From a virus, in UHGV virus genome UHGV-0381259: a DNA stretch of 21,264 bases; one strand, written 5' to 3'. Position numbers and translations under genes: made by a program. Shown one piece after another: positions 1-6,640 of this stretch. How positions within the stretch are numbered: position 1 is the stretch's first letter; each line of letters opens with the position of its first letter. Under the pieces are notes generated by a model. It searched no databases. It had not been told where the DNA came from and saw only the letters and a program-made list of their open reading frames with translations.

Positions 1-2
1 AT

Positions 3-179
3 TTTTTGGAGTCTTTGAAGCTCCAGCGCATTGATTTTTTTCTTAAGCTTGTAGCGGCTAGTGAGTGTAGTGATGAAGAGAAGGGGCTGGCTCTGCAGTG
101 GGTTTCTGAATTGACTGATGAACTCATGGCAAAAATCAGAAGCCACGAATACAACCGCTCAATGGATGTCATCAGCTGA
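3..179 (+). CDS. 3' end of an upstream CDS of unknown function (partial, open at the window edge)
   Basis: Frame 3 is open from the window edge to TGA at 177-179 (...ELTDELMAKIRSHEYNRSMDVIS*); no start in window; product not recognised. Confidence 0.25.
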   Translation, partial: FLESLKLQRIDFFLKLVAASECSDEEKGLALQWVSELTDELMAKIRSHEYNRSMDVIS

Positions 180-189
180 GGTGACTTTT

Positions 190-423
190 ATGCGCATTGA
201 AATAATGATCGATAAAGAGCAGAAGATTAGCCAGTCTACCCTGGACGCCCTTAAATCCGAGCTTTACCGCAATCTGCGCCCCCTGTATCCCAAAACGGTA
301 ATCCGTATCCGTAAAGGTAGCTCTAACGGTGTGGAACTGACCGGACTGCAACTGGACGAAGAAAGAAAACAAGTGATGAAAATTATGCAGAAGGTGTGGG
401 AAGACGACAGCTGGCTGCATTAA
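190..423 (+). CDS. DinI-like small protein (DNA-damage-inducible protein I family)
   Basis: 77-aa product MRIEIMIDKEQ...LYRNLRPLYPKTVIRIRKG...VMKIMQKVWEDDSWLH resembles DinI in length and in the conserved N-terminal MRIE and C-terminal W-x-D-W motifs; GAGGTG RBS 5 nt upstream of ATG 190. The track ORF from 118 is an N-terminal over-extension. Confidence 0.75.
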   Translation: MRIEIMIDKEQKISQSTLDALKSELYRNLRPLYPKTVIRIRKGSSNGVELTGLQLDEERKQVMKIMQKVWEDDSWLH

Positions 424-557
424 GAAACGTTGCTGGCGTCTGAACTTGCTTCTGGCGTCAGCAAGGTTGAACAACGAGCTGTGCGAGGCGTTAGCTCTGT
501 GGTGCATGTCTATACCGCATGAGATCGCATGATCGTTTGAGGATCGTTTTTGCTAAG

Positions 558-581
558 GCCCGCCAGAACTGGCGGGCTTTT
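558..581 (+). terminator. Rho-independent terminator-like hairpin
   Basis: GCCCGCC-agaact-GGCGGGC stem-loop followed directly by TTTT, downstream of the DinI-like gene. Confidence 0.5.
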
Positions 582-626
582 GCGTAGATCATGCAGGTGC
601 ATGAAAACCACTACATAAAGCGGGCA

Positions 627-645
627 GGCGTGGCGGGGATACGAG
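627..645. other. Candidate cos (cohesive-end) sequence of the P2-like phage
   Basis: GGCGTGGCGGGGATACGAG resembles, from memory, the 19-nt cohesive ends of P2/186 (GGCG[A/T]GGCGGGGAAAGCA-); sits in a non-coding gap. Recalled consensus, not verified. Confidence 0.25.
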
Positions 646-715
646 CGCGCGCAAATATGGAAATTAGCTGCGTTTTGTTATATATAGGAGAGATATTAAA
701 AGGGTAGGCACCACT

Positions 716-1240
716 ATGACTGTTTTACACCTTGTAGCAGACCACCTTGTTAAGCAGGCTAATACAACCCATAGAAAGGGGGAGGTGCACGCAATATTAG
801 CAGATGCATATGGTCGTTCTGCTTTTAATCGGTATTATTATGCTTGTTTTCTTAACGTCCGTGAGTTTGTTTCAACTATTGATTCCAATTGGGGCAAGGT
901 CAAGCATGCAGATGTTCCAAAATTATTACGTGATAGTGTAAGTAGAAAGATAGAAGTTGAGCTCCAAAAATCAGAAAAAATTGGCGATATAACTTTATGT
1001 GAATATAAATCTAAAAAGAGCTTAATACGTACTTCACTGAACAATATGGCTTCAACTATGGCATTGGCATATACAATTAGGGGAGTTGTTGATTATGAGC
1101 CGGAAATTGAGATGATATTCTGTAATGGCAGTTTTTCGATTAATAAAACATCAGTGGCTTCGGCTAAGGGGTGGCTACAAACCATTAATTCAGAAAGATC
1201 GAAGGTTACCAGAATTATGAAGGAGATTGGCTTTGTCTAA
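716..1240 (+). CDS. Hypothetical protein, 174 aa, first gene of AT-rich cargo cassette
   Basis: Clean ATG ORF with purine-rich RBS (AAAGGGTAGG) upstream; AT-rich codon usage unlike the phage late genes; no recognisable catalytic motif. Confidence 0.6.
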   Translation: MTVLHLVADHLVKQANTTHRKGEVHAILADAYGRSAFNRYYYACFLNVREFVSTIDSNWGKVKHADVPKLLRDSVSRKIEVELQKSEKIGDITLCEYKSKKSLIRTSLNNMASTMALAYTIRGVVDYEPEIEMIFCNGSFSINKTSVASAKGWLQTINSERSKVTRIMKEIGFV

Positions 1241-1970
1241 CCAGAAAATATTATCAGAATTGTTGGTAAAATTCCCGTTCATAAAAGTTAAAGATGTAAC
1301 AGATTTTATGGATACAATTCTGTTGATCATCCCAATTAACAAAATAGTACCATTGTCTGCTTCGAATAGTATAACAAAACGCCAGATATCTTTATTGGTG
1401 AAACGAATAACAGAAAAGCTAAATGTAAGAGTGTTGATTAGTTACTCACCATTTTCAGATAAAGACAATATTGAAGCGGCTTTAGTGGCGTTAGCGAGAA
1501 GTAATTTTAAAAAAGGGAAGATATCTGATTTGAATTTATCTTTCTTTGATTCGCAAAACGCAGTGCTTTATGTCTTTTGTAAAAACCTTACATTATCAGA
1601 ACGCGAGAAGTGGGAGTCGTTAGTTGTAGGGATATTAAACGGTTTTAATATAAAAGTGACTTCATTTGTATATGAGGCTAAAAATAATCCTGAACCTACA
1701 ATGATGGTTATTTTAAGAGCGGCAAAAAAATGTCAGCCCTTTGATCTTCCAAGATTGTTCAGTCAACTTGATAATGGCGATTATCATATTGAATCACTTG
1801 ATTGGCTGAATGGGAAGCTAGACAACTTACGTAAGAAAGGATTTTTATTAAGAAGCCATGACGGAACTTATAGAATGACATTGTCAGGGTTAGAAATAGT
1901 TCCAGTGACTAAATCTAGGCAAAGTTCTGATATAGAGAGGGTCCTTTATCTTGCACGCAAACATCTATAG
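1227..1970 (+). CDS. Hypothetical protein, about 247 aa, second gene of cargo cassette (start uncertain)
   Basis: ORF overlaps the stop of the previous gene, suggesting translational coupling; track start is TTG at 1227, first in-frame ATG near 1305. Contains VRVLISYSPFSDKD and LTLSEREKWESL motifs (see findings). Confidence 0.55.
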   Translation: MALSNQKILSELLVKFPFIKVKDVTDFMDTILLIIPINKIVPLSASNSITKRQISLLVKRITEKLNVRVLISYSPFSDKDNIEAALVALARSNFKKGKISDLNLSFFDSQNAVLYVFCKNLTLSEREKWESLVVGILNGFNIKVTSFVYEAKNNPEPTMMVILRAAKKCQPFDLPRLFSQLDNGDYHIESLDWLNGKLDNLRKKGFLLRSHDGTYRMTLSGLEIVPVTKSRQSSDIERVLYLARKHL

Positions 1971-2046
1971 TGGTATATTCGCGTTGGTAGTGGCGTTCAC
2001 GAGAGTATGCATCATGCTCATTTGTGAAGGTCGCGGACAGAATGTG

Positions 2047-2097
2047 CGCCTGCGAATCAGCAGTCGTTCCTTCGAAACGTCTGCTGATTCGCAGGCG
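2047..2097 (+). ncRNA. Candidate structured RNA element: perfect 17-bp inverted repeat hairpin upstream of the RT (possible retron msd-like stem)
   Basis: CGCCTGCGAATCAGCAG (2047-2063) pairs perfectly with CTGCTGATTCGCAGGCG (2081-2097); 17-nt loop; no U-tract after the stem; 45 bp upstream of the RT start codon. Confidence 0.3.
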
Positions 2098-2141
2098 TCA
2101 TCAACGAAAGTTTTCATCAGCTTTGCTTAAGGATTGACCTT

Positions 2142-3119
2142 ATGAAAACGCCACTACCCTTATTTTTCACATTCACTGATGCCGAACAGTTTCTTAAGGC
2201 GTTGAGCACACCGCTGAGAGATAGATATTCTGCGGAACTTATTCGACTACAAGGCCTCAGGCTTCCCCCATTAGTTTCTTGGAGTATCTTGTCTGTTGCC
2301 ATTGGCGTAAGCCCACAATTTATTACTTCGTTAATTAAGAATAAGTCAAAATACTATCGTGTTTTTTCTATTTCCAAAGGAAGAGGAAAGAAAAAAAGAA
2401 TTATTGAAGCACCCAAGGTTAGTATAAAAATCATTCAGTCTTGGGTCGCTCATCATTTAAGCATTAATCATAGTCTTGGCATAAGTGAAAATGCATATGC
2501 TTTTATCCCAGGTAAGAATGGGATATATGAAGCTGCAAGTAAACATTGTGGTGCAAAATGGATCCTGTCTATTGATTTAAGAGATTTTTTCCATACGATC
2601 ACTTCAGATATAGTGATTTCAACATTAGTTGAAATCGGATATAGAGCCGATCAGGCTGCTAAATTGAGTGAATTACTTACCTTGAATCAGAGACTTCCGC
2701 AAGGTGCGCCAAGTAGCCCTGTTATCTCAAATTTAGTATTTAGGTCAACTGACTTAAAGATTAATGAGTTGATTTCTAATACGGGTATTAAATATACTAG
2801 ATATGCTGATGATTTGACCTTCTCCGGTGATGATGAAACATTTGATATCGAGGAACTTAAAGATAATGTTGTAGAGTTGTTACTATCTGATAATTGGGTT
2901 GTGGCTGAGGAAAAACTCAGAATAGCTAGGATTCCTAATAGATTAAAAGTACATGGTTTTCTAGTTCATGAAAATAAACCTAGATTGACTAAAGGCTATC
3001 GAAATAAAATTAGAGCATATAAACATTTATTGAGGACTGGGAAAATAGTTGAGAAGGATTTTGATAAAATTAAAGGGCATGTTAACTATAGTGAATATAT
3101 TGATAGATTGAATGAGTAA
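2142..3119 (+). CDS. Reverse transcriptase, retron-type (325 aa, RT core only)
   Basis: RT motifs in the ORF: ILSIDLRDFFHTI, LPQGAPSSPVISNLVF, YTRYADDLTFSG (YADD catalytic box), KVHGFLV; size and motif spacing match compact retron RTs such as Ec86 (from memory). AAGGA RBS 8 nt upstream. Confidence 0.9.
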   Translation: MKTPLPLFFTFTDAEQFLKALSTPLRDRYSAELIRLQGLRLPPLVSWSILSVAIGVSPQFITSLIKNKSKYYRVFSISKGRGKKKRIIEAPKVSIKIIQSWVAHHLSINHSLGISENAYAFIPGKNGIYEAASKHCGAKWILSIDLRDFFHTITSDIVISTLVEIGYRADQAAKLSELLTLNQRLPQGAPSSPVISNLVFRSTDLKINELISNTGIKYTRYADDLTFSGDDETFDIEELKDNVVELLLSDNWVVAEEKLRIARIPNRLKVHGFLVHENKPRLTKGYRNKIRAYKHLLRTGKIVEKDFDKIKGHVNYSEYIDRLNE

Positions 3120-3139
3120 GGGCCTAGCCCTTACTCATT
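3111..3139. terminator. Palindromic hairpin between the convergent RT and Q genes (putative bidirectional terminator)
   Basis: AATGAGTAAGGGC-cta-GCCCTTACTCATT, a perfect 13-bp inverted repeat; the RT stop (3117-3119) and Q stop (3139-3141, minus) both lie in or at the stem. Confidence 0.45.
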
Positions 3140-4170
3140 TAATTTAATGTGTATATTCCAAAGGATATGATTTTATCTCCTATCCAGTTATTTAACTCTT
3201 CTAGTCTTCTCTGTAATGGTATTAACTCATTCCTCACAAAAACAAGGCTTGCCTTCTCCACATCCCCAAAACCCCCAACATTATTAGGCATTATCCCCAT
3301 CATTTGTGGGGGTACACGATGCGCCGCCATCATGTCGTCCCGGCTTACGTTCTTGATGTTCAGAAACTCATCCTTCGCCGCGACTTCTGATAACGGGATA
3401 ATCTGAAGTCCGTCCTTTTTGCCGTTAGGAGAGTACATAAACAGATTGCGGAAGTTACCTGGTCCTTTGGCGCTTTTCATTGCATTGCGGAGGTTGTTCA
3501 CATCCTCCTGGTTTTGTGCGGCGTCGGTCATGTACATGATGAAGCCTGCATGACTGCCGTTGATGTAATACTTCCGGCGGAACAGCGTGGCGGACTCGTT
3601 GAGCAGGGCTGACGGAATGGCAGAAAGATAACCGGGCAGGCCGTAGATCTCCTGGTTGATGTCCGGTTCCATCAGATGAAAAATGCTGCCTTTCGTGAAC
3701 TGATACGGCTGGGTTGTCATACCGTATTGCACAAACCAGTAGGTATCCAGGTCTAACCCGCGTCGGGTGTATTTTGCCAGAGCAGGCTCAAGGGCGATAA
3801 CTTCACCAAACCGGTTCGTGCGTTTCTCCAGGTAGGCGTTACCAAATACCAGATAGTCCTGCACAAAACGTGAAAAAGCCTGTTGGCTGAGCAGCGGGTG
3901 AGGGATGTAGGTGCTGGTCAGAATGTTGCATTTCACCGCAATCGGTGAGCTGTGATGCACGGCGGCGCGGAAGGTTCGCGCCAGTCCGTCAAAGCTGACG
4001 GGAGGCTCATACCAGCGATCTGTCTGTACGCATTCCACATAGTCCAGCAGTTCGCGGCGGTCAAGTACTGGAATGGGATCACCGAAGCTGAAAGCCTCAG
4101 CCGTTGGAGCGTTGCCTGGTTTTGTGTTGTGATCAACCTTTACCAGTTTGATGTTTTTATGTTTGCTCAT
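3139..4170 (-). CDS. Q: Portal vertex protein Q (P2 gpQ family)
   Basis: 343-aa product with strong similarity to P2 gpQ as recalled (PVLDRR..LDYVEC...WYEPPVSF...RAAVHHSSPI...FVRNELIPLQ); correct size and position next to the terminase gene. Confidence 0.93.
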   Translation of the reverse strand: MSKHKNIKLVKVDHNTKPGNAPTAEAFSFGDPIPVLDRRELLDYVECVQTDRWYEPPVSFDGLARTFRAAVHHSSPIAVKCNILTSTYIPHPLLSQQAFSRFVQDYLVFGNAYLEKRTNRFGEVIALEPALAKYTRRGLDLDTYWFVQYGMTTQPYQFTKGSIFHLMEPDINQEIYGLPGYLSAIPSALLNESATLFRRKYYINGSHAGFIMYMTDAAQNQEDVNNLRNAMKSAKGPGNFRNLFMYSPNGKKDGLQIIPLSEVAAKDEFLNIKNVSRDDMMAAHRVPPQMMGIMPNNVGGFGDVEKASLVFVRNELIPLQRRLEELNNWIGDKIISFGIYTLN

Positions 4171-4874
4171 TCTGCCAGCTCCTCGTTAGCAAGAGGCCAT
4201 TCGCACATAAACAGCATTCCCCAGTCCTCTGCTGATAATTCTTTTTTCATATCATTCAGCCAGTTATCAGTAAACAACATTGCTCCTGATGCTACTGCAT
4301 CATCAGCGGTGAATACCATGCGGGTTACACTGTTGTTTCTGCTTAGCTTTTTATATTCCTGCCATGCCTCCGGGTTAGGGCTGGGAGTGGTGTAGTAGGT
4401 GGCGTGGTGGTGTGCGTGCAAGGACATTCCTTTGGCGAGAGTAATCATATTTCTCGGTGATTCAGCCCAGGCATACTCTGACACGTAGACATTTCCACTG
4501 AGTGCGGCGGCGTGGCACTTGAGGTCGATAAAATAAATGACCGCACCATTGGGAAACTCCAGATATGTTTTGCCAGATTTTATTTTTCCAGTGCGCGTAT
4601 AAGCTGCGGTCTGGCTTAAAAATGCTGACACATAGGCTTTGACTGCCTGCGCTGATGCGGTGCTGCAGCAGAGGAAAATCTGGTTACGCCCGGTATGCAG
4701 TGCATCGATCAGGGCCTCATAGGCAAAAAAGAAATCCGCTCCTGCCTGGCGCATTTTTGTGAGTAAACGGTTTCTACTCTTTGGGCCAGTGTTCCACTCA
4801 TACTGGTAATCAAAGAAAGTGCTATCCACCGGAAGTCCCGCGATAGTCATGAGGTTAGTTGGGATTGGGGGCAT
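4167..4874 (-). CDS. Terminase-ATPase-domain paralog (truncated gpP-like protein, about 235 aa)
   Basis: Product aligns to the N-terminal ATPase region of the adjacent gpP (FFFAYEALIDALHTGRNQIFL vs FYFAHEALIDALLTGRNQIFL; FPNGAVIYF vs LPNGATLYF; SGNVYVSEYAWA vs HGNLYLDEYFWI; LFMCEW vs LLMCEF) but has no nuclease half. Its start overlaps the P stop (TGATG) and its stop overlaps the Q start (ATGA). Confidence 0.6.
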   Translation of the reverse strand: MPPIPTNLMTIAGLPVDSTFFDYQYEWNTGPKSRNRLLTKMRQAGADFFFAYEALIDALHTGRNQIFLCCSTASAQAVKAYVSAFLSQTAAYTRTGKIKSGKTYLEFPNGAVIYFIDLKCHAAALSGNVYVSEYAWAESPRNMITLAKGMSLHAHHHATYYTTPSPNPEAWQEYKKLSRNNSVTRMVFTADDAVASGAMLFTDNWLNDMKKELSAEDWGMLFMCEWPLANEELAE

Positions 4875-6640
4875 CAAAAAATCTCCACAATATTGCTGGT
4901 ATTGGCGGACTCGCCCTGCAGCGGTTCGTTAAACAGTGCGTGCATTGTTGCCCAGGCCAGATCGGCATGGCTGGCTTCTTCGCTGCGGCTGGCTTCATAG
5001 GTCGGGCGGTTGCCGCTGGCGGTGGTGGCGCGACGGATTGCCATAAATGACTGCGCAATGTCGGTGTGCCCGGCGTCAAACTCCAGACGGCGGTGGCTGA
5101 TAATGTCGTAGGCCTTGAGTACCAGGGCGTTTTTAACGTTGGGGTTGTAGACAAACTCCCGGACGGCAGGAAAGAACGCTTTCACGTTCTCGTAAACTCC
5201 GTGACCGACACCTGTCGAGTCGATACCGATATAGGTCACGTTGTACTGTTCGGTCAGTTTTTTGATGGCGTCAGCCTGGGCGCGGAAGTCCATCCCGCGC
5301 CACTGGTGACGCTCAAGAATGCGAAACTTACCGCCTGGCACGGCTGGCGGTGCCACCACCACGCATCCGGCGCTGTCGCCGTTCTGCGTACCTTTTGCCG
5401 GGTCATAACCGATCCACACTTCTCGCCAGCCAAACGGGCGCAGGGCCAGTGCATGAAAGTCGGTCCAGACTTCCCAACTGTCCACCATGCATGCCTGCAG
5501 CTCGCTGAGCGGAAATACGGACGCGAGATCGTCCACGAATTCACACATCAGCAGGTTCTGGTATTCGTCCGGGCTGTATTCCATGCGCAACTGGTCAAGG
5601 TCGAACAGGTTACAGCCGCCGCGCACCGCATCTTCCACGGTGACTATCTGGCGGTATTGCCCGTCTGCACACAGCAGGCCTGGAGCCAGATTGCTGTGGG
5701 ACAGGTCGATGTCCACCTTGTCGGCTTTATTGCGCCCACGGTTGAATAGCGCACCGGACCAGAACGGATAAGCACTGTGTGTCAGGCTGGATGGCGTGGA
5801 AAAATAGGTTTGTCGCCATTTTTTGTGAATAGCCATACCGGAAGCCACTTTGCGCAGCTCCTGGAATTTCGGTATCCAGAAATATTCATCCAGATACAGG
5901 TTTCCGTGGTAACTCTGGGCCGTGCGGGCATTGGTGCCGAGGAAATACAGTGTGGCCCCGTTGGGAAGCACCATCGGATCGCCTTTCAGCTCCACTTCCA
6001 CTTCTTTGGCGAAGTCGATGATGTACTGCTTAAAGACGTGGGCCTGTGCCTTGCTGGCGGAAAGGAAAATCTGGTTACGTCCGGTAAGCAGAGCGTCAAT
6101 CAGGGCTTCATGGGCAAAGTAAAAGGTCGCGCCGATCTGGCGTGACTTCAGCAGGTTGCGGATGCGGTTGGTTTTTCCGGCTTCCCACCAGTGGCGCTGG
6201 TAGTTGAACATGGAGGAATGGAAGATTTCTTCCAGCTTCTCAATCTGCTCATCGGTGAAAACATTCTTTTCCGGCTGACGGCGCGGGCCTTTGTTGCGGT
6301 TGGCGACGTTAGGGTTTAAGTCGACTTCGTTGCCGCCATTGTTAAACTTGCCGATCCGCGCGTGGCGTTCCGACTGGCGCGCCAGCAGGTCAATCTCTTT
6401 GAAATCTTTCCCTTCTTTGTGCTCCTTCATAATGAGCTGGCAGTAGCGTGCGGCGGTGGTGAGCTGCATCTGATCCAGCGGCCCATAGTCACCCCACTTG
6501 TCGCGTTTCTTCCAGCTGTGAACGGTTGCAACTTTCTCGCCCAGCATTTCAGCAATGCGGGCTACACGGTATCCCTGAAAGTACAGCAGCATGGCCTGCC
6601 GACGGGGATCGAGATCTGCGGGTGTCAGTGTGGTGTTCAT
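4874..6640 (-). CDS. P: Terminase large (ATPase) subunit P (P2 gpP family)
   Basis: 588-aa product matching P2 gpP in length and sequence character; divergent from the O gene across the late promoter region. Confidence 0.93.
   Translation of the reverse strand: MNTTLTPADLDPRRQAMLLYFQGYRVARIAEMLGEKVATVHSWKKRDKWGDYGPLDQMQLTTAARYCQLIMKEHKEGKDFKEIDLLARQSERHARIGKFNNGGNEVDLNPNVANRNKGPRRQPEKNVFTDEQIEKLEEIFHSSMFNYQRHWWEAGKTNRIRNLLKSRQIGATFYFAHEALIDALLTGRNQIFLSASKAQAHVFKQYIIDFAKEVEVELKGDPMVLPNGATLYFLGTNARTAQSYHGNLYLDEYFWIPKFQELRKVASGMAIHKKWRQTYFSTPSSLTHSAYPFWSGALFNRGRNKADKVDIDLSHSNLAPGLLCADGQYRQIVTVEDAVRGGCNLFDLDQLRMEYSPDEYQNLLMCEFVDDLASVFPLSELQACMVDSWEVWTDFHALALRPFGWREVWIGYDPAKGTQNGDSAGCVVVAPPAVPGGKFRILERHQWRGMDFRAQADAIKKLTEQYNVTYIGIDSTGVGHGVYENVKAFFPAVREFVYNPNVKNALVLKAYDIISHRRLEFDAGHTDIAQSFMAIRRATTASGNRPTYEASRSEEASHADLAWATMHALFNEPLQGESANTSNIVEIF

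Follow-up and report, generated by a model that had tools for sequence, protein, structure and literature searches.

The locus raises a simple question: what does the first gene of a small, GC-poor cassette that also encodes a reverse transcriptase (RT) specify? The gene (ORF1, positions 716 to 1240, + strand) lies in a 21,264-nucleotide stretch of viral DNA, referred to here as the window, and encodes a protein of 174 residues. A preliminary description could recognise no motif in this protein, called it unassignable and recommended it for structural analysis on that ground. We conclude that ORF1 is almost certainly the toxin gene of a complete type IX retron that a P2-like prophage carries as low-GC cargo between gpA and gpQ. 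Its product would be a HEPN-type endoribonuclease effector, with a function read across from orthologues.

The gene and its genomic setting

The start codon of ORF1, ATG 716, is the earliest in its frame, which is open from position 668. Of 500 shuffles of the 2.4-kb island, only one produced 174 or more consecutive codons without a stop, all frames being considered. The likely ribosome-binding site, AGGGTAGG (positions 701 to 708, + strand), sits 7 nt before the start codon. Its duplex with the anti-Shine-Dalgarno (anti-SD) sequence is worth −7.5 kcal/mol, whereas values of −6 or better are attained at about 11% of the positions in the window; the site, put forward as plausible in the preliminary description, remains so but is modest. 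A sigma-70 consensus scan of positions 583 to 715 gave no promoter, with fewer sites than shuffled sequences would lead one to expect.

Comparison with the Citrobacter orthologue (87% identical) indicates that the gene is under purifying selection, with dN 0.068, dS 0.528 and dN/dS 0.13. The earlier view that the ORF is real is borne out by this ratio, by the ORF-length shuffles and by the 404 clusters that match the family profile (see below). The gene is intact, neither a fragment nor decayed, because it is full length, keeps the invariant residues of its family, shows a low dN/dS and yields a confident AF2 model. A pseudogene or fragment reading of positions 716 to 1240 was considered and is ruled out by dN/dS, the invariant residues and the ORF-length shuffles.

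The three protein-coding genes of the cassette have GC fractions of 0.37 (ORF1), 0.34 (ORF2) and 0.35 (RT), as against 0.50–0.56 for the neighbouring phage genes. Upstream of the cassette are a gpA-type gene for the replication endonuclease and one for a DinI-like protein; on its other side the cassette adjoins the 3′ end of the portal gene gpQ. The gpA–gpQ interval of P2-like phages is a hotspot for anti-phage systems including retrons (Rousset et al. 2022, PMC9122126). The edge of the variable region is marked by window positions 600 to 667, just upstream, which are conserved across over 1,200 E. coli genomes and numerous P2-like phages. Positions 600 to 3140 match the E. coli MFDS1016424 chromosome at 100% identity, and the cassette was found in only three of 5,426 complete E. 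coli genomes.

Cassettes encoding the same 174-, 245- and 325-residue proteins, with identical spacing, occur elsewhere. In Citrobacter the cassette sits in a P4-like island (DUF927 primase, AlpA, integrase) adjoining smpB. At a locus resembling that of Retron-Kva2 (L061) it lies in a Trb/T4SS conjugative element with a SIR2 gene beside it, and in Morganella it is chromosomal, accompanied by an HNH gene and an integrase. Since copies with identical spacing occupy such different mobile contexts, the three genes evidently move between mobile elements as a unit.

Identity of the 174-residue protein

The protein matches the PADLOC profile HEPN_IX (E = 1.4e-52), with residues 4–172 aligned on profile positions 1–160 of 161. 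It also matches chain I of PDB entry 36ht, ‘Retron-Kva2 HEPN’ (E = 5e-67). This alignment is gapless, runs from residues 1–174 on 1–174 and contains 105 identical residues out of 174 (60%). Full-length matches of this kind are at odds with the description of the protein as unassignable. The impression that it contains no domain arose because the general libraries hold no model for it: scans of ORF1 and ORF2 against Pfam, NCBIfam and PHROGs returned no family, and to that extent the preliminary description was right, whereas PADLOC HEPN_IX and 36ht_I identify the protein readily. The family so found is a defence family, not one unrelated to defence. We note that RefSeq labels both the HEPN protein (WP_088551307.1) and its neighbour WH (WP_088551308.1) as hypothetical protein. 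No papers came to light when the literature was searched for these accessions and for the strain name.

For Kva2 HEPN, activity as an RNase and toxin and the role of the catalytic residues have been put to the test in three preprints of July 2026 (10.64898/2026.07.14.738597, 10.64898/2026.07.14.737667, PMC13405049). The functionally tested residues, H10, Q14, Y40–Y42, H64 and R122, are all present in ORF1 with the Kva2 numbering. In the orthologues H64 and R122 are catalytic and Y40–42 position the substrate, while mutants of H10 and Q14 have an intermediate effect (10.64898/2026.07.14.738597, 10.64898/2026.07.14.737667, PMC13405049). H64 and R122 are invariant across 23 homologues with identities down to 27%. 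To extend the family, 1.84 billion cluster representatives were searched with its profile, and 404 clusters matched at E ≤ 0.001; of the 150 matches listed, nearly all are single-domain proteins of about 160–175 residues. All 170 of the 170 aligned family members share R39, Y41, Y42, H64, R122, D126 and Y127, and the seven residues are all found in ORF1. The RYYY segment that positions the substrate, in which R39, Y41 and Y42 are the invariant members, is thus retained.

Structure prediction, which had been suggested at the outset, gave a confident fold for the monomer when AF2 was run with the family alignment (pLDDT 95.6, pTM 0.89). The model consists of five helices (residues 3–20, 23–55, 64–88, 94–127 and 147–170) and a small sheet (strands 133–136 and 139–142). 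The third core helix begins at H64 and R122 is located near the end of the fourth. This placement, compared by description, agrees with the published account of the Kva2 cryo-EM structure (10.64898/2026.07.14.738597). Judged on sequence, ORF1 belongs to the type IX retron HEPN effector family, every feature open to such a test being present.

Relation to canonical HEPN RNases

Proteins of the canonical HEPN superfamily are said to carry an Rx4-6H catalytic motif, reportedly set out by Anantharaman et al. in 2013. This motif is absent from ORF1, in which the sequence from R122 reads RGVVDY. A histidine four to six residues after R122 is found in only eight of 170 family members, and the sole R-x4-H of ORF1, R20–H25, is at a position that is not conserved. 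The absence has been noted before, by Mestre et al. in 2020 (PMC7736814) and in the 2026 preprints (10.64898/2026.07.14.738597, PMC13405049).

Our own searches did not connect the protein to canonical HEPN structures. Pfam gave ORF1 no match at E ≤ 1, to HEPN models or otherwise. Foldseek, run with the AF2 model against a PDB library that extended to April 2026 and so predated 36ht, returned nothing at E ≤ 0.001, the canonical HEPN proteins being too distant. The best HEPN match was the HEPN-MNT toxin 5yep_B, at rank 20 with E = 1.3 and TM 0.32–0.39. Searched against PDB sequences, the family profile found 36ht alone, and no bridge from the ORF1 family to canonical HEPN appeared among the 150 matches listed of the 404 clusters. 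HHpred and Phyre matches to HEPN have been published (PMC7736814), and Kva2 HEPN superimposes on 7AE8 with an RMSD of 4.4 Å over 127 Cα atoms at about 9% identity (10.64898/2026.07.14.738597). Because Rx4-6H is absent and Foldseek gave no significant HEPN match, the HEPN label rests on these published HHpred, Phyre and structural comparisons.

The same negative results, together with the empty Pfam, NCBIfam and PHROGs scans and the RefSeq label of hypothetical protein, could be taken to mean that ORF1 is no nuclease at all. It would then be either a subunit with a structural or scaffolding role and a mere likeness to HEPN, or an inactive relic within a prophage in decay. We find this scarcely credible. 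ORF1 is full length, its seven 100%-invariant residues are intact and its dN/dS is 0.13. In the orthologues, RNA cleavage, toxicity and defence are all lost with the substitution H64A or R122A (Kva2 and Sen3; R116A in Yin1), and tRNA is cut in vitro by Yin1 once activated (10.64898/2026.07.14.738597, 10.64898/2026.07.14.737667, PMC13405049). By analogy with these orthologues, the ORF1 protein would work as a HEPN RNase does, as a member of a divergent branch whose active site is split and assembled in trans.

The overlapping WH gene

The second gene of the cassette (positions 1233 to 1970, + strand) starts with TTG and encodes a 245-residue WH protein of KH-KH-HTH type, an antitoxin-like adaptor. 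The stop codon of the HEPN gene (1238–1240) falls inside its start region, as the preliminary description had observed; with the true WH start at TTG 1233 the overlap amounts to 8 nt (TTGTCTAA). The Shine-Dalgarno sequence of the WH gene, AAGGAG (positions 1220 to 1225, + strand), lies within the 3′ end of the HEPN gene. It is perfect, is placed 7 nt before TTG 1233 and forms an anti-SD duplex of −8.8 kcal/mol; a duplex of −8 or better can form at only about 2% of the positions in the window. In close orthologous loci the element is AAGGAG or CAGGAG. An alternative start, TTG 1227, was given for ORF2 by the mechanical ORF list. It was dropped in favour of TTG 1233, which is favoured by the Shine-Dalgarno sequence, by PGAP (whose start corresponds to window position 1233) and by protein length, since translation from TTG 1233 gives the 245 residues of Kva2 WH.

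The 8-nt overlap is kept across the family: every close orthologous locus has it, as do 26 of 48 distant ones, and an overlap of about 8 bp was reported as typical of type IX by Mestre et al. 2020 (PMC7736814). A re-count of WH start codons with the close loci added gave 20 TTG, 15 ATG and 1 GTG. Because of the overlap and of the WH Shine-Dalgarno sequence within the toxin gene, this arrangement most likely ties synthesis of the neutralising WH protein to that of the toxin.

ORF2 matches PADLOC HTH_IX (E = 1.5e-61) and PDB 36ht_B, ‘Retron-Kva2 WH’ (E = 3e-78, residues 3–245 on 3–245). The residues that contact msDNA in the orthologues are present, namely R50, Q51, K57, D190, N193, D197, R200 and K201. 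The sole difference at the reported contacts is N54, a reported msDNA-backbone contact, which is replaced by leucine here.

The ncRNA, the RT and completeness of the retron

The msr-msd ncRNA (positions 1986 to 2158, + strand; 173 nt) was located by its inverted repeats and covariation. A perfect 12-bp inverted repeat is formed by a1 (1986–1997) and a2 (2147–2158), and the a2 arm extends over the opening codons of the RT gene. In about 40 loci, inverted repeats that differ in sequence occupy the same position. The predicted fold is more stable than those of shuffled sequences (z = −6.7), and in an alignment of 26 loci compensatory double changes occur in 26 of the 33 consensus pairs. Detection of the retron ncRNA relied on the repeats and covariation rather than on Rfam: at E ≤ 1, window positions 1 to 4000 gave only spurious Rfam matches (MIR405, RsaD and CRISPR-DR33), all below the gathering score.

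The msd stem-loop (positions 2047 to 2097, + strand) has 22-bp arms (2047–2068 and 2076–2097) with 95% complementarity. Its tip, CTTC (2070–2073), which serves as template for GAAG in the msDNA, does not vary among 26 loci. In Yin1, Sen3 and Kva2 the WH residues D197, R200 and K201 read the msDNA tip G-A-A-G (10.64898/2026.07.14.737667, PMC13405049). The Yin1 tip described by Carabias et al. is dG28, dA29, dA30 and dG31 (10.64898/2026.07.14.737667), with which the GAAG found here agrees position by position.

The RT gene (positions 2142 to 3119, + strand) encodes 325 residues, with R73, F75 and the YADD motif at 221–224. The active site (Y221, A222, D223 and D224) is intact. The protein matches PADLOC RT_IX with E = 4.2e-129, the next best retron type being at 6e-67; it also matches Pfam RVT_1 and PDB 36ht_A (E = 1.5e-145). 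The earlier proposal that ORF1 is the first gene of a defence cassette with an RT thus stands, all three genes being assigned to type IX by PADLOC. In that type the first upstream gene encodes a HEPN-like protein (cluster 1740_1) and the second a protein with a C-terminal winged-helix/HTH domain (PMC7736814). Production of msDNA and protection against phage have been demonstrated for Kva2, Sen3 and Yin1 (10.64898/2026.07.14.738597, 10.64898/2026.07.14.737667, PMC13405049). The HEPN and WH/HTH genes, the msr-msd ncRNA and the RT together are evidently a type IX retron in the classes of Mestre et al. 2020, predicted by homology to produce msDNA and to protect against phage.

The gene overlap resembles that of typical type II toxin–antitoxin operons, and we considered whether ORF1 and ORF2 might serve above all to stabilise the prophage as a self-sufficient addiction pair, with the RT and ncRNA dispensable. 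Kva2 WH alone largely neutralises HEPN toxicity (10.64898/2026.07.14.738597), ORF2 has a weak AbiEi-like match in PADLOC (E = 0.003), and solo HEPN_IX homologues that lack an RT exist at two loci (L007 and L053). Against this, among 57 loci of other species gathered through the HEPN alignment, 48 distant loci keep HEPN, WH and RT in this order, with about 170 nt (occupied by the ncRNA) between WH and RT. Mutation of the RT YADD motif or deletion of the msd loop ends defence in the orthologues (10.64898/2026.07.14.738597, 10.64898/2026.07.14.737667, PMC13405049), the ncRNA is under strong structural selection, and the cassette travels between mobile elements as three genes. A mere addiction pair is in our judgement very unlikely, and the complete type IX retron is the reading that we retain.

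Proposed mechanism

In the orthologues, HEPN expressed alone is toxic, cuts cellular RNA and is neutralised by WH or by the RT, ncRNA and WH together (10.64898/2026.07.14.738597). Cryo-EM of Kva2 and Yin1 revealed a HEPN dimer with a single composite H64/R122 site (10.64898/2026.07.14.738597, 10.64898/2026.07.14.737667, PMC13405049). WH, which comprises two KH-like or HEPN-binding domains and an HTH, wraps HEPN and bridges it to the RT, and msDNA fixes this arrangement within a larger assembly in which the active site is covered (10.64898/2026.07.14.738597, 10.64898/2026.07.14.737667). On activation tRNA anticodon loops are cut, and activated Yin1 cuts tRNA in vitro (10.64898/2026.07.14.737667); Hayashi et al. 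observed fragments of 16S and 23S rRNA besides tRNA (10.64898/2026.07.14.738597).

Transferred to the present locus, these findings suggest the following scheme. The ORF1 protein would dimerise, and H64 and R122 of the two protomers would together make up a single RNase site that needs no metal, in place of Rx4-6H. In the uninfected cell WH would wrap HEPN, and RT-bound msDNA would lock WH in a higher-order assembly that keeps RNA from the site. Cutting of the msDNA by a phage nuclease, or its remodelling by a phage DNA-binding protein, would free HEPN. The freed enzyme would then cleave tRNA anticodon loops and rRNA, such that translation halts and the infected cell arrests, i.e. abortive infection.

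The three preprints share the core of this scheme but differ on several points. The assembly is described as a sheet, as a ring of 8–10 units or as an asymmetric complex of 4 RT:3 WH:2 HEPN, and the substrates as tRNA only or tRNA and rRNA (10.64898/2026.07.14.738597, 10.64898/2026.07.14.737667, PMC13405049). The position of the branching G also differs (10.64898/2026.07.14.738597). As to the trigger, cleavage of msDNA by a phage exonuclease or PD-(D/E)XK nuclease (10.64898/2026.07.14.738597, 10.64898/2026.07.14.737667) is set against binding by T5 D5 (PMC13405049).

According to the latter account, a phage HTH protein such as T5 D5 mimics WH, binds the msDNA stem-loop and remodels the complex, thereby releasing HEPN with the msDNA uncut. 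Hibshman et al. mapped T5 escapers to D5, found that co-expression of D5 with Kva2 is more toxic and showed that designed msDNA binders activate the retron (PMC13405049). The window keeps both the msDNA tip (CTTC/GAAG) and the WH residues that read it. Two independent groups nevertheless report nuclease triggers, Bas24-Exo and the PD-(D/E)XK protein B14T. Neither acts once its catalytic residues are mutated, and experiments in vitro showed directly that the msDNA is cleaved and HEPN set free (10.64898/2026.07.14.738597, 10.64898/2026.07.14.737667). Release by binding is consequently a possible but somewhat unlikely route for the present retron. The two triggers may coexist, and the sequence here does not distinguish one from the other; for type IX retrons the question is whether activation proceeds by msDNA cleavage or by msDNA binding.

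The protein had been recommended for structural analysis as a novelty. This premise falls, because structure and mechanism have already been worked out on orthologues and the cryo-EM structure of Kva2 (36ht) has been deposited. ORF1 is an ordinary member of a known system that was predicted in 2020, is represented in PADLOC and is covered by a structure and three mechanistic studies of 2026. The E. coli allele is an unremarkable orthologue and raises no new mechanistic question. Since identity to the Kva2-like locus is only 60% for HEPN, 51% for WH and 64% for RT, its trigger range or RNA preference could differ from that of Kva2. This divergence, together with leucine in place of N54 at an msDNA-backbone contact of WH, leaves room for the P2-borne allele to have a trigger range or RNA-target preference of its own, directed for example at competitors of the P2 carrier such as other phages or P4-type satellites; we regard this as improbable. 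Were that so, the prophage would be wielding a host-killing RNase in phage–phage competition and not in simple host defence. The main value of the finding is one of annotation, as what general databases miss here is the RNase toxin (HEPN) and the adaptor (WH) of a type IX retron. The locus also adds an example borne by an E. coli P2 prophage, diverged enough from Kva2 for comparative tests of trigger specificity.

Comparison with known systems

Retron-Kva2 of Klebsiella variicola is closely similar. Its HEPN is likewise 174 residues long and its WH 245, the operon order and the 8-nt overlap are the same, its ncRNA (G1–C173) has the same length of 173 nt, and the RT YADD motif is likewise at 221–224. 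The differences lie in sequence, with 40% of ORF1 residues differing from Kva2 HEPN, and in the host element, an E. coli P2-like prophage here as against a conjugative-element context beside a SIR2 gene at the Kva2-like locus.

Retron-Sen3 (Salmonella enterica subsp. arizonae) and Retron-Yin1 (Yersinia intermedia) are also type IX retrons of the same architecture (10.64898/2026.07.14.737667). Compared by numbering, Sen3 agrees with the present proteins at HEPN H64, RT D223/D224 and WH D197/R200/K201, whereas the numbering of Yin1 is shifted (R116, D199). The msDNA tip is common to them, and by analogy inhibition scaffolded by msDNA and cleavage of tRNA anticodon loops after msDNA cutting would be expected here.

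Going by the literature on orthologues, the canonical HEPN RNases (HEPN-MNT toxins such as 7AE8 and 5YEP, Cas13 and Csm6/Csx1) would share with ORF1 an all-alpha core, dimer-dependent, metal-independent chemistry with arginine and histidine, tRNA anticodon loops as targets and the logic of abortive infection. Unlike in canonical HEPN, the type IX histidine (helix 3) and arginine (helix 4) are 58 residues apart and are contributed across protomers. Unlike in HEPN-MNT pairs, the neutralising partner is WH together with the msDNA-bearing RT and not an MNT nucleotidyltransferase.

Retron-Eco1 (Ec86) and Retron-Eco7 likewise employ RT and msDNA as antitoxin and sensor alongside a separate toxin, and a phage nuclease that cuts the msDNA frees the effector; the RT encoded here is homologous to that of Ec86 (E = 7e-33). 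The type IX effector is an RNase, whereas theirs act as an N-glycosidase or by other chemistry. Type IX also adds the WH adaptor with its two KH-like domains, and its RT has an N-terminal domain.

Results and discussion

The window's cassette of 174, 245 and 325 aa recurs, its internal spacing identical, in three pairs of loci from other species. In the first pair (L059/L060) it lies in a P4-like satellite-type island adjoining smpB; in the second (L061/L062) it sits in a Trb/T4SS conjugative element with a SIR2 gene alongside; and in the third (L063/L064) it occupies a chromosomal islet that also carries an HNH gene and an integrase. The type IX cassette is exchanged as a unit among mobile elements of very different kinds.

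In the window, the 68 bp directly 5′ of the cassette (600–667) are shared, with 92–100% conservation, by over 1,200 E. coli genomes and by many P2-like phages; this stretch marks the boundary of the hotspot. Across 519–707, PGAP calls a pseudo-CDS that contains an internal stop. The motif GGCGTGGCGGGGA (627–639), which probably resembles the P2/P4 cos core, is found again in the P4-like locus L059, there too on the 5′ side of the cassette. At the other end, a palindromic stretch (3101–3149) covers both the RT stop (3117–3119) and the convergent portal stop (3139); Rfam matches to MIR405 on both of its strands were judged spurious. Homology between the cassettes of different hosts is lost within about 20 nt past the RT stop. 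The palindrome is a candidate bidirectional terminator or 3′ boundary of the cassette.

Beyond the cassette, an ORF of 236 aa (4167–4877, minus strand) is inserted between the portal gene gpQ (3139–4170) and the terminase gene gpP (4874–6640), each of which overlaps it by 4 nt. The ORF is a diverged copy of just the ATPase domain of the terminase: it is matched by Pfam Terminase_6N (3e-17) and PHROG 3746 (1e-85), shares 34% identity with residues 142–368 of gpP and has no nuclease domain. Yersinia phage vB_YpM_MLG42 and Escherichia phage 500465-1 carry the same insert at around 79% nucleotide identity; the majority of P2-like phages are without it.

Within the cassette, the WH gene starts with TTG (1233–1235 in the window) in every Enterobacterales locus examined, and in 20 of the 36 family loci with the 8-nt overlap. 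The WH:HEPN ratio could be set by such a weak start codon, which would be reached chiefly by ribosomes ending the toxin gene.

Two homologues of the HEPN_IX toxin stand alone, one in locus L007 (5001–5507) and one in locus L053 (406–870). Both retain RSAFNRYYYA and the catalytic His and Arg, and no WH or RT gene was detectable up to 5 kb downstream of either. The L007 homologue is preceded by a gene pair that, judged by eye, resembles a small toxin–antitoxin module.

Three preprints on type IX retrons from July 2026 (10.64898/2026.07.14.738597, 10.64898/2026.07.14.737667 and PMC13405049) are at odds on the geometry of the assembly (a sheet, a ring of 8–10 subunits or an asymmetric 4:3:2 complex), on the trigger (msDNA cut by a phage nuclease or bound by T5 D5), on the RNA targets (tRNA alone or tRNA and rRNA) and on where the branching guanosine lies. 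In the Morganella morganii islet the WH gene (5518–6255 in L063, also L064) is frameshifted around 60 codons in, the rest of the type IX cassette being intact, and gene callers report only a C-terminal ORF of 200 aa. Both an NCBI genome and a Logan run assembly, records that were processed separately, show the frameshift. It is unexpected, because in the characterised retron Kva2 of Klebsiella variicola WH neutralises HEPN.
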